The notes under the pieces: generated by a model
What the model was told of the DNA's origin: nothing
The model's input: the letters and a program-made list of their open reading frames with translations, nothing else
Databases searched by the model: none
Made by a program: the position numbers and the translations under genes
Shown here: one piece after another, positions 62,689-64,000 of the stretch
Layout of the letters: the number at the start of each line of letters is the position of its first letter
Position numbering within the stretch: position 1 is the stretch's first letter
Origin: an uncultured Chitinophagaceae bacterium
GTDB lineage: Bacteria; Bacteroidota; Ignavibacteria; UBA10030; UBA8401
Direction: 5' to 3'
Length of the DNA: 64,000 bases
Assembly: GCA_964355925.1 (NCBI GenBank)
Contig: CAYHFN010000005.1
Location: 50,706 to 114,705 of the forward strand

Positions 62689-62757
62689 GTATAATGAGAA
62701 GATGGAATTGAGTTGAATGTAACAGTAAGAAATGCAACAGTAAGAAACTCCAAATTG

Positions 62758-62786
62758 TTGTAATTGATAGCAACCTTTCTTAAATT
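62758..62786 (+). promoter_or_regulatory. Sigma70-type promoter of the metH leader
   Basis: TTGTAA-17 nt-TAAATT, ending 6 nt before riboswitch P1. Confidence 0.65.
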
Positions 62787-62792
62787 GTCACA

Positions 62793-62901
62793 GTGGCGAT
62801 TTGAAAACGACAGCTTGCCCGCCACCTGCATCTCTCTAAAAATTATAAAAGATTTTTGGTGAACGTGTAGCCACCACAATGTGGAAATTGCTAAAGCGTC
62901 G
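62793..62901 (+). ncRNA. SAM-II riboswitch, long-loop type
   Basis: P1 GTGGC/GCCAC, GATTT, TTGC, AAATTGCTAAA, pseudoknot CGAC-A-GC / GCGTCG; upstream of metH. Confidence 0.85.
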
Positions 62902-62926
62902 AAAGGTCAATTCTTCATTGTACCCC

Positions 62927-62965
62927 GACGCAAACCCAAAAAATGCTGTTGGGGTTTTTCGTTTT
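62927..62965 (+). terminator. SAM-dependent terminator
   Basis: GACG-C-AAACCC...GGGTTT-TT-CGTT followed by T residues. Confidence 0.6.
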
Positions 62966-62968
62966 ATG

Positions 62969-63003
62969 GAGCAGTTTTCAGTGATATGTTTTAAGTAATA
63001 AGT
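62969..63003 (+). repeat. Left array of five heptads ending in AGT/TGT
   Basis: GAGCAGT TTTCAGT GATATGT TTTAAGT AATAAGT. Confidence 0.7.
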
Positions 63004-63012
63004 GGCATTATT

Positions 63013-63369
63013 ATGCAAGATTTCAAAAAACTTAAGGTTTGGGAAAAAGCACATCAGTTAACATTAGATGTGTATGCAATTACCAAAAAATTCCCAAAAG
63101 ATGAGATGTTTGCTCTAACAAGTCAAATTAGGAGAGCATCATCATCTGTTGCTGCAAATATTGCCGAAGGATGCGGTAGAAAATCCAAAAATGAATTTTC
63201 ACATTTTTTAGCAATTGCAATTGGTTCGATCAGCGAAGTTGAATATTTTCTTCTCCTTGCAAAAGATTTGAATTATATGACTCAAACAGATTATGAAAAA
63301 TTAAATAGTATGGCGAATGAAACAAAACGAATGTTAATATCCTTTCAACAAAAAGTAGAGCAACAATAA
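63013..63369 (+). CDS. Four-helix-bundle protein (23S rRNA IVS / Avd-like family)
   Basis: FKKLKVWEKA, FPKDEMFALTSQIRRASSSVAANIAEG, GSISEV motifs. Confidence 0.92.
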   Translation: MQDFKKLKVWEKAHQLTLDVYAITKKFPKDEMFALTSQIRRASSSVAANIAEGCGRKSKNEFSHFLAIAIGSISEVEYFLLLAKDLNYMTQTDYEKLNSMANETKRMLISFQQKVEQQ

Positions 63370-63403
63370 CTTACTACTTCTAACTTAAGACTTATAACTT
63401 TCC
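63369..63403 (+). repeat. Right array of five heptads starting ACTT
   Basis: ACTTACT ACTTCTA ACTTAAG ACTTATA ACTTTCC. Confidence 0.8.
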
Positions 63404-63407
63404 ACAA

Positions 63408-64000
63408 ATGAATAAAAATTTCTTACAAGTATTGAACGAAAAGATCATTGTGTTTGATGGTGCAATGGGAACGAATATCCAAACGCAAAATCTTACAGCG
63501 GATGATTTCGGCGGCGAGCATTTGAACGGCTGCAATGAATATCTTCTCATATCCAAACCATCGGCGATTGAAAAGGTACATTCAGATTTTCTTGCTTCGG
63601 GAGTTGATGTTATTGAAACCGATACATTCGGTTCATCCTCCTTGGTGCTTGGGGAATATGATCTGCAGGATCGCGCGTATGAGATTAGTAAAAAAGGTGC
63701 AGAGTTAGCAAAAAAAGTAGCGAAAGAATATTCGACTGCCGCGCATCCAAGATTTGTTGCCGGTTCGATCGGTCCAACAACAAAACTTCCATCGCTCGGA
63801 CATATTTCTTTCCGTGATATGGAAAAAACATATTACGAACAGATTGCCGGGCTTGTTGAAGGCGGAGCCGATCTGCTGATCGTAGAAACGTGTCAGGATG
63901 TTCTTCAAATTAAAGCAGCACTTGGTGCCGCGTTCGGATATTTCAAAGACAAACGGATCAAACTTCCCGTAATGGCTTCGATCACGATTGAAACTATGGG
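63408..64000 (+). CDS. metH: B12-dependent methionine synthase (5' part, runs off the window; missing from the ORF track)
   Basis: MNKNFLQVLNEKIIVFDGAMGT, GCNEYL, IETDTFG, RFVAGSIGPTTK, IVETCQD. Confidence 0.95.
   Translation, partial: MNKNFLQVLNEKIIVFDGAMGTNIQTQNLTADDFGGEHLNGCNEYLLISKPSAIEKVHSDFLASGVDVIETDTFGSSSLVLGEYDLQDRAYEISKKGAELAKKVAKEYSTAAHPRFVAGSIGPTTKLPSLGHISFRDMEKTYYEQIAGLVEGGADLLIVETCQDVLQIKAALGAAFGYFKDKRIKLPVMASITIETM

Follow-up and report, generated by a model that had tools for sequence, protein, structure and literature searches.

The subject of this report is a small gene, together with the short repeats on either side of it, in a 64,000-nt stretch of DNA from an uncultured Chitinophagaceae bacterium (GenBank contig CAYHFN010000005.1), hereafter the window, whose numbering applies to all coordinates unless another locus is named. 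The gene, located at 63013..63369 on the + strand, encodes a 118-aa four-helix-bundle (4HB) protein of the PF05635/TIGR02436 family ('23S rRNA intervening-sequence protein', S23p) and lies between a riboswitch-like leader and metH, the gene for cobalamin-dependent methionine synthase. It is enclosed by two inverted arrays of five 7-nt units, the left ones being of the type nnTNAGY and those on the other side its reverse complement. An inverted heptad bracket of this kind is a hallmark of the whole PF05635 family and appears to be unreported: a full-text literature search found no paper linking heptamer arrays to the family generally, which is not proof of absence. The element itself is of a known kind, an S23p cassette of the intervening-sequence (IVS) type; what is new is its placement in an mRNA leader. 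We assign a probability of roughly 0.45 to a composite reading according to which the arms of this cassette pair, loop out the open reading frame (ORF), and make a processing site, and the cores of the heptads are probably read by the cassette's own pentameric protein.

The left array (62969..63003, + strand; direct reading and pattern search) consists of the units gagcAGT, tttcAGT, gataTGT, tttAAGT, and aatAAGT, which end at 62975, 62982, 62989, 62996, and 63003; the unit ending is AGT in four of five cases and TGT in one, and the cores are cAGT, cAGT, aTGT, AAGT, and AAGT. The right array (63369..63403, + strand; direct reading, Tandem Repeats Finder (TRF), and pattern search) is composed of five ACTTnnn units of the R-C-T-N-A type, ACTTact, ACTTcta, ACTTaag, ACTTata, and ACTTtcc, starting at 63369, 63376, 63383, 63390, and 63397, which are the reverse complement of the left units. 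Both arrays keep an exact period of 7 nt. TRF reports a single period-7 array in the window (63366–63400), and a search of the 64 kb for (ACTTN3)x5 with up to three mismatches returns these two arrays only, on opposite strands, with a mean of 0.01 matches in shuffled windows and none of 100 shuffles reaching 4. A sequence-only reading of this DNA had proposed five mirrored heptads on each side of the gene, and direct reading confirms them against a chance expectation of 0.01 in the window. Its further claim that only AGT/ACT cores are kept holds insofar as a conserved core exists, but this core comprises five nucleotides (T-N-A-G-Y on the left, R-C-T-N-A on the right) rather than three. The right array begins at 63369, the position at which the TAA stop codon of the ORF ends; the array contains stop codons in all three frames and is separated from the metH ATG (63408) by 4 nt (acaa, 63404–63407). 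In an orthologue that is 94% identical (L002), 16 extra nucleotides between left array and ATG (~335–359 of that locus) create a GGAGGA box resembling a Shine-Dalgarno (SD) sequence, which the window does not have.

The bracket recurs across the gene family. Homologues were collected from 80 fetched loci (46–61% identity), and counts were made over 82 loci from about 10 phyla, including Bacteroidota, Acidobacteriota, Chloroflexota, Planctomycetota, Proteobacteria, Nitrospirota, Actinomycetota, and others. Significant self-similarity at a lag of 7 nt is present upstream of the gene in 63/82 loci and downstream in 45/82, against 18/601 random windows of the same contigs, and a lag of 7 comes out best in 63 of 65 cases upstream and 45 of 47 downstream. 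At least five in-phase cores occur on the left in 64 of the 82 loci (78%) and on the right in 44 (54%), compared with 17 of 294 controls (6%). A second collection supplied 16 further, independent loci, among them homologues of only 41–46% identity, and these gave the same pattern. The core of the left unit varies by lineage (TAAGT, TCAGC, TTAGC, TGAGC, TCAGT, GCGC-containing, CAGG, and others) around a consensus n-n-T(72%)-N-A-G-Y(92%), phased on an A-G common to 60/70 loci, and the right consensus is the reverse complement of nnTNAGY; whatever the unit of a locus, its right array is always its left one reverse-complemented. When the left consensus is compared with the reverse-complemented right one, 5.1 of 7 positions agree within a locus and 3.7 of 7 between loci. 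Positions 4 and 7, which belong to the core, differ from lineage to lineage and show covariation between left and right arm (0.67 vs 0.25 and 0.83 vs 0.41, respectively); unit positions 1 and 2 are free, their complementarity being no better than chance. The modal number of units is five in both arms, within a full range of 3–15; among 42 dereplicated groups, 19 have exactly five left units and 32 have four to six, and the right arm is broader. That the arrays are a family-wide trait had escaped the sequence-only reading; its link between repeat number and five is upheld as a mode but not as a rule. In a distant orthologue (L183, 2858–2950), the right arm has changed to ACGTA units and the left, apart from a single TACGT, is still mostly TAAGT, so that divergence between the arms is possible at the N position.

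Selection acts on both the protein and the arrays. For the window and three orthologues, a set in which synonymous sites are near saturation (pS 0.5–0.84), the ratio of nonsynonymous to synonymous divergence (dN/dS) of the ORF is 0.03–0.04, and it follows that the protein is made and matters. Among the same sequences, 39 of 48 positions in the 5-nt cores of the arrays are invariant (81%), as are 200 of 236 first and second codon positions (85%), against 32 of 118 third codon positions (27%) and 6 of 20 positions in the 2-nt spacers (30%). The cores differ from the third positions with p 2e-10 and from the spacers with p 1e-4. Taken separately, the left array has 18/23 core and 3/10 spacer positions invariant in the four orthologues, and the right array 21/25 and 3/10. 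What is conserved is the core sequence in a 5+2 rhythm, and not merely the ability to pair.

To our knowledge, proteins of the PF05635/TIGR02436 family, known from rRNA intervening sequences for some 30 years, have been assigned no function outside diversity-generating retroelements (DGRs). The window protein is an unambiguous member, scoring 143.3 bits against PF05635 (cut-off 33.8; E 3.7e-42) and 134.8 bits against TIGR02436 (cut-off 24), and a single search returned 3716 relatives above threshold. Its AlphaFold2 model (predicted local distance difference test score 96.5) comprises four helices, 8–24, 35–54, 59–85, and 91–117, and superimposes with template modelling (TM) scores of 0.94 on Xcc0516 (2GSC), 0.76–0.83 on BT_0352 (2RLD), and ~0.8 on the DGR protein Avd (4DWL, 8UB7). 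The crystallised homologues 2GSC and 2RLD have five chains per entry each, and by homology the window protein would likewise form a homopentameric ring. An R-x3-S-x3-N-x2-E motif in helix 2 (R41, S45, N49, and E52 in the window protein), described earlier for the family (PMC3936711), is reflected in the invariance of R40, S45, N49, and E52 across 35 homologues. Avd, which shares the fold, is a pentameric barrel that binds an RNA element in the DGR ribonucleoprotein, as seen in a cryo-EM complex (10.1101/2023.10.23.563531); the DGR RNA, unlike the window cassette, has no heptad arrays. The window protein is not itself an Avd: it reaches 33.4 bits against bAvd (cut-off 40) and 37.2 against NF033474 (cut-off 80), its neighbours are an NMO-family gene and metH, and no reverse transcriptase, template repeat, or variable repeat adjoins the gene. 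PF05635 and bAvd are the sole Pfam families matched, PADLOC profiles for anti-phage defence gave 0 matches, and a HEPN-like relationship was rejected as no such folds occur among the structural neighbours of the model.

The two arms are complementary, and a minimum free energy (MFE) fold of 62955–63415 pairs them, closing the cassette. The predicted structure (62958..63412, + strand) is a long-range segmented stem of 62958–63003 with 63369–63412, including the metH AUG, from which the ORF is looped out. The arm duplex has an energy of -21.2 kcal/mol, against -12.4 +/- 3.2 for shuffled sequences (z -2.8), and across 79 loci the median z is -2.4, with 51 of them below -2. RNAalifold, applied to five orthologous arm pairs, yields 28 pairs with a positive covariation term and a compensatory change in 3 of the 28. 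Invariant cores, drifting spacers, and the lack of covariation support in RNAalifold bear out the earlier suggestion of a periodic element that is more than a simple hairpin. The closest known counterparts are the ORF-bearing 23S IVSs of Coxiella burnetii and Leptospira, in which a PF05635 ORF likewise lies in a unit of ~430–450 nt closed by terminal inverted repeats. The Coxiella IVS, 428 nt long, encodes S23p and carries two to three tandem GACAGAT heptamers just 5′ of the ORF; these lie in the terminal stem, RNase III cuts at the first repeat, and the number of units is strain-variable (PMC4990558). This heptamer-bearing IVS is the nearest precedent for the window cassette, and one that the sequence-only reading had not noticed. 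Several differences exist between the two. The 23S IVSs are inserted at helix 25 or 45 of the rRNA, whereas the window cassette lies in the leader of an mRNA, with a riboswitch terminator before it and metH after it, in a window with no rRNA match. In contrast to the near-perfect 28-bp helix of Coxiella, the terminal inverted repeats of the window close a segmented stem that is weaker and more interrupted, and while the Coxiella ORF is thought to be decaying, that of the window is under strong purifying selection.

From this anatomy we infer stem formation in vivo, cleavage by RNase III, binding by the protein, and any effect on metH, in the following manner. Since the cassette lies past the terminator, its RNA would be made only when the SAM-II-like riboswitch (SAM, S-adenosylmethionine) lets RNA polymerase read through. 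The arms would then zip into a stem of 5-bp blocks with 2x2 mismatches between them, looping out the ORF and reaching the metH start codon. By analogy with the rRNA-borne relatives, this stem may serve as a processing site at which RNase III would cut out the ORF RNA and leave metH with a very short leader. The pentamer, for its part, may read the cores one per subunit, in the way TRAP and HutP read NAG triplets; by binding the 5′ arm beside its own start codon it could govern its own translation as well as the formation of the stem. TRAP and HutP are ring oligomers that accommodate one triplet per subunit (G/U-AG and N-AG, respectively) in regularly spaced leader arrays; the HutP spacing of NAG plus 4 nt amounts to a 7-nt period, and that of TRAP is shorter. 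The left array of the window, (nnUNAGY)5, similarly presents an A-G every 7 nt, and by this comparison a PF05635 ring might read one repeat per subunit. Despite this likeness, TRAP and HutP have unrelated folds and their genes are not bracketed by their own sites, and the window has a complementary second array. Reading by the protein is favoured because a fixed 7-nt ruler is kept across phyla together with a shared core beyond what pairing needs, and because the modal five units match a five-subunit ring and the homologous Avd pentamer binds RNA.

A number of observations weigh against this composite reading. The stem of the window is weak (-21 kcal/mol with a 366-nt loop), is broken every 5 bp, and is a poor canonical RNase III substrate. 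In RNA, the 5′ arm alone would be visible to a protein that reads UNAGY, and for family members beyond those in rRNA, binding and cleavage are putative. Sense duplexes are more stable than antisense ones by 1.6 kcal/mol (p 0.10); as this difference is not significant, pairing at the RNA level is not separated from symmetry at the DNA level. The sole metatranscriptome contig from the locus (62938–63179) shows no cut at the left array and no ends or joints, and is uninformative on excision. The cassette is also not needed for metH, given that empty alleles exist and that a relative with a half-deleted cassette (L085) retains metH. Unit numbers range from 3 to 15. Furthermore, a census of 916 kb of fetched DNA, a sample enriched for 4HB loci, found 160 period-7 arrays, of which 96 have a 4HB ORF within 200 nt and the other 64 have none that close. 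Several of these 64 are convergent pairs 70–100 nt apart with no ORF between them, and ORF-less inverted pairs also occupy the space between riboswitch terminator and metH ATG in other lineages (L105, GGTAAAT/ATTTACC; L107, AAATCGT/ACGATTT; L112, ATTGCCG/CGGCAAT). 4HB genes therefore nearly always come with arrays, and arrays need no 4HB gene in cis. Finally, a specificity code between protein and core failed. Outside Bacteroidota, AGC-core brackets go with H79 in 27/29 cases and with K/R2, and AGT-core brackets, which have several independent origins, are mostly associated with non-H79 (6/8) and Q2 (5/8). The proposed code (H79 for AGC, non-H for AGT) was obeyed in 6/8 independent non-Bacteroidota lineages (Fisher p 3e-4) and was broken in 2 of 5 new loci; having failed on robustness, it is a weak lead only. 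Confidence in the composite reading is held down by the weak, interrupted stem, the gene-less arrays, the loci with up to 15 units, and the failed specificity code.

Some features of the ORF-less arrays may be recorded here. The pairs in metH leaders lie at -70..-1 from the ATG in L105, -115..-1 in L107 and L112, and -150..-25 in L164; their unit sequences are unrelated, and the right arm abuts the ATG. Convergent ORF-less pairs with arms ~70–100 nt apart are found 1.3–2.7 kb from 4HB genes in L031 (4772–4924), L034 (4807–4972), L064 (1541–1683), and L082 (6015–6126), and their core equals that of the neighbouring 4HB bracket in L031 and L064 and differs in L034 and L082. Downstream (3′) of a cyanobacterial 4HB gene, L041 (3614–3936) carries four near-identical 34-nt arrays of AGCTGAn units in one orientation, spaced by ~70–150 nt. 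As for the protein positions named above, the window protein has Q2 and F79.

The most serious alternative, which we nevertheless regard as unlikely, is that the arrays do nothing but form double-stranded RNA that is cut by RNase III or another RNase, the protein not touching them; the 7-nt period would then be a by-product of stem growth through slippage and inter-arm conversion. The complementary arms, the covariation of positions 4 and 7, and the existence of ORF-less inverted pairs fit this explanation, as does the Coxiella IVS, where RNase III cleaves the heptamer stem and production of S23p is doubted by the authors (PMC4990558). However, a stem needs neither a fixed period nor a fixed motif, yet a period of 7 is found nearly everywhere and T-N-A-G-Y recurs across phyla. 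The cores stay identical, instead of changing in a compensatory manner, at near-saturated synonymous divergence, and the chance-level complementarity of positions 1 and 2 breaks the helix every 5 bp. An ORF under strong purifying selection is not accounted for either.

Comparison with strains and relatives bears on a second alternative. In a contig from metagenome run X7, position 62966 is joined to 63408 via 36 unrelated nucleotides that replace 62967–63407, and the flanks are ~99% identical to the window, with 1 difference in 213 nt (62754–62966) and 3 in 193 nt (63408–63600); the same empty allele is present in runs X14 and X15. These junctions define the cassette, left array plus ORF plus right array, as a discrete unit of 441 nt (62967..63407, no strand assigned), close to the limits given by the sequence-only reading, which had also proposed a search for empty riboswitch–metH junctions in relatives. 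Such junctions do occur in L086–L088 (82–86% identical metH), where riboswitch and terminator lie 40–70 nt from the ATG with neither arrays nor ORF. In L085 (95% identical metH, ~2190–2398), the left array and the ~62 first codons are deleted, and what survives of the cassette is the right array with the ORF's 3′ half. The cassette is kept in a 92%-identical groundwater relative and in L090. Presence and absence at ~99% flank identity, the empty sites, and the decayed copy would suit an element acting at the DNA level, in which the arrays serve a cassette that is or was mobile as terminal inverted repeats or as sites of recombination, with the 4HB protein as its trans-acting factor or a passenger and the ORF-less pairs as non-autonomous derivatives. 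The models for such an arrangement are repetitive extragenic palindromes (REPs) with their REPIN pairs and RAYT genes, or insertion sequences (ISs) with MITEs (miniature inverted-repeat transposable elements). RAYT genes are bracketed by inverted REPs, and ORF-less REPIN pairs are found elsewhere in the genome; in a similar fashion, the 4HB gene is bracketed by inverted short repeats that also occur as ORF-less pairs. In contrast to RAYT, an IS200/IS605-type transposase of known mechanism, the 4HB protein lacks any recognised catalytic motif, and a REP is one palindrome rather than a tandem of heptads. Also in favour of a DNA-level element are the ORF-less heptad pairs, found both in the same contigs and, in other lineages, upstream of metH; the indistinguishable sense and antisense pairing energies; and the occurrence of the family in rRNA genes and in unrelated operons, cas operons among them (one site lies between cmr3 and cmr2; PMC3936711).

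Against this stand the lack of a transposase ORF or recombinase in or beside the cassette, its single-copy status in the 64-kb window, the absence of a convincing target-site duplication at the junctions with the empty alleles (X7 and relatives), and a protein without known catalytic motif; the cassette does not have the makings of a transposable element of the IS or MITE type. Moreover, its position is stable: all looked-up homologues at 70–74% protein identity keep the order thioredoxin-like gene, NMO, riboswitch, 4HB, metH, and other clades keep fixed sites of their own, e.g., an arginine-biosynthesis operon in Chitinophagaceae and Sphingobacteriaceae. As far as recent mobility goes, the mobile cassette of the sequence-only reading finds no support in this comparison, and stable synteny with metH is among the findings that the reading had named as evidence to the contrary. 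Public metagenome contigs contain no 7-nt indel polymorphism in the arrays. We consider a DNA-level element improbable, and what emerges is an old resident cassette that selection maintains and that is lost or replaced now and then. At the empty site of L086, a perfect 13+13 palindrome, GTAAGACGGGATG/CATCCCGTCTTAC, is located at -52..-26 from the metH ATG; its outer bases resemble one left plus one right unit (TAAG...CTTA) and could be a footprint or a coincidence.

Less probable again is a third alternative, according to which the right array is a translation element that stops all frames and promotes or tunes initiation downstream, left array and ORF being secondary. Tandem heptamers of this type, usually in 2–6 copies, are known as TAACTGA in Beggiatoaceae, Cyanobacteria, and Bacteroidetes, as short tandemly repeated repetitive (STRR) sequences and further heptamers in Nostoc, and as GGGAATC in Xanthomonas; they often end a few nucleotides from an SD-less start codon, they vary by 7-nt indels, and in Xanthomonas they form 70–75 convergent pairs (PMC4679880, PMC4692102, 10.1101/2022.06.06.494920). 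The right unit of the window, TAACTTA, differs from TAACTGA by one base, and the array, with five forward units, belongs with the start-codon-proximal heptamers defined by at least two forward units near an SD-less start (PMC4679880). The stops in all frames 4 nt from the metH ATG, the TAACTGA repeats that end next to SD-less starts in Beggiatoaceae, Cyanobacteria, and Bacteroidetes (PMC4679880), the ORF-less pairs whose right arm abuts the metH ATG in other lineages, and the effect on expression of Nostoc heptamers near start codons (10.1101/2022.06.06.494920) favour such a role. It leaves unexplained, however, the equally conserved left array, with its sharper mode at five, and the inverted symmetry; empty-site relatives express metH from an array-less leader, and many loci have no nearby start codon 3′ of the right array. 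The sequence-only reading was correct that no SD precedes metH, but this is a lineage trait, shared by the empty-site relatives, and its claim that the right array occupies the ribosome-binding region carries no weight because the lineage lacks SD sequences. That slippage produced functionless simple repeats beside the gene by chance, heptamer simple repeats being common in some genomes (PMC4692102), is hardly credible given a chance expectation of 0.01 in the window, the association in 82 loci from many phyla, and cores conserved like non-synonymous positions. An integron attC site, a CRISPR mini-array, and a G-quadruplex were rejected in view of the absence of an integrase or cas context, the 7-nt units, and the A/T-rich sequence; the G-quadruplex reading of GGGAATC is not applicable to the A/T-rich window units.

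Returning to reading by the protein, the published heptamer repeats raise the prospect of a wider role. The papers describing them make no link to PF05635 and describe no inverted bracket round a gene, and the binding partner of start-proximal heptamers has been posed as a question by several groups (PMC4679880; 10.1101/2022.06.06.494920). The bracket ties two puzzles together, the function of PF05635 and the identity of the heptamer-repeat binder. It is conceivable, though doubtful, that PF05635 pentamers supply the sequence-specific partner so far missing for the tandem 7-nt repeats over-represented in many bacterial genomes, reading one nnUNAGY per subunit, that their genes lie within such sites for the sake of autoregulation, that the arrays dispersed elsewhere make up a genome-wide RNA network, and that the 23S IVSs were merely the first-noticed members. 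If this were true, STRR, TAACTGA, and GGGAATC arrays as well as the ORF-less pairs in metH leaders would be post-transcriptional or RNA-processing sites. In any case, cassettes of the IVS type are found in mRNA leaders and in operons, and through processing or binding they could alter the expression of host genes, metH among them.

The transcriptional context of the cassette is set by the intergenic region that begins at the stop codon of the NMO-family gene (62688). An aptamer-like element at 62783..62903 (+ strand; RF00521 at relaxed thresholds, and alignment) contains the P1 stem GTGGCG/CGCCAC, the segments GATTTGA...GCTTGC, and the pseudoknot strand GCTAAAG (62890–62896). At the Rfam gathering threshold, neither the window nor L001–L004 yields a riboswitch at this locus; with RF00521 (SAM-II; gathering score 36), the window scores 14.3 bits and the leader of L001 31.1 bits (E 1.4e-5). 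The low score of the window arises from ~48 extra nucleotides (~62833–62880) that interrupt the aptamer between P1 and the GCUAAAG pseudoknot strand. In 10 loci (the window, L085–L088, L090, L094, L101, L108, and L001), metH is preceded by GAUUUGA...GCUUGC...GCUAAAG and then a terminator. Judged by its motifs, the element looks like a SAM-II-type variant that is not filed as a SAM-II (RF00521/RF01726) member, so that the SAM riboswitch claimed by the sequence-only reading is retained as a SAM-II-like motif, sub-threshold in Rfam. A terminator-type hairpin, CCCCGAC...GTTGGGG plus T-run (62923..62965, + strand; direct reading), which a simple terminator scan missed owing to a loop of >8 nt, is the presumed expression platform and is kept in all relatives, with or without the cassette. 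The 4HB gene lies past this terminator, and the single metatranscriptome contig mentioned above runs from the terminator into the ORF; both agree with the earlier proposal that the gene is under SAM-type control. The cassette is best seen as a selected passenger riding on SAM-controlled transcription, the tuning of metH being only putative. The 5′ part of metH occupies 63408..64000 (+ strand; PF02574, E 7.5e-50) and runs past the window end; a full-length metH follows the cassette in L001 and L181–L187.

Some minor features of this region remain to be mentioned. The 48-nt insert in the aptamer contains a hairpin of its own (CACC...GGTG); it is missing from L001–L004, present in the empty-allele strain X7, and slightly changed in the X12 relative. 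Just 5′ of the riboswitch's conserved promoter-like box TTGTTGTAATT, a 15-nt tandem repeat, AATGCAACAGTAAGA, is present in 2.1 copies (62716–62747), and at the equivalent place L086 (2265–2304) has three copies of a different 14-nt unit, ATTGGAACTCACAA. On the + strand, 1342–1497 and 2141–2327 are two cobalamin riboswitches 650 nt apart, both full-length and each scoring 75 bits against RF00174. They lie at one end of the window and metH, itself B12-dependent, at the other, which makes for a region rich in control related to B12 and methionine.

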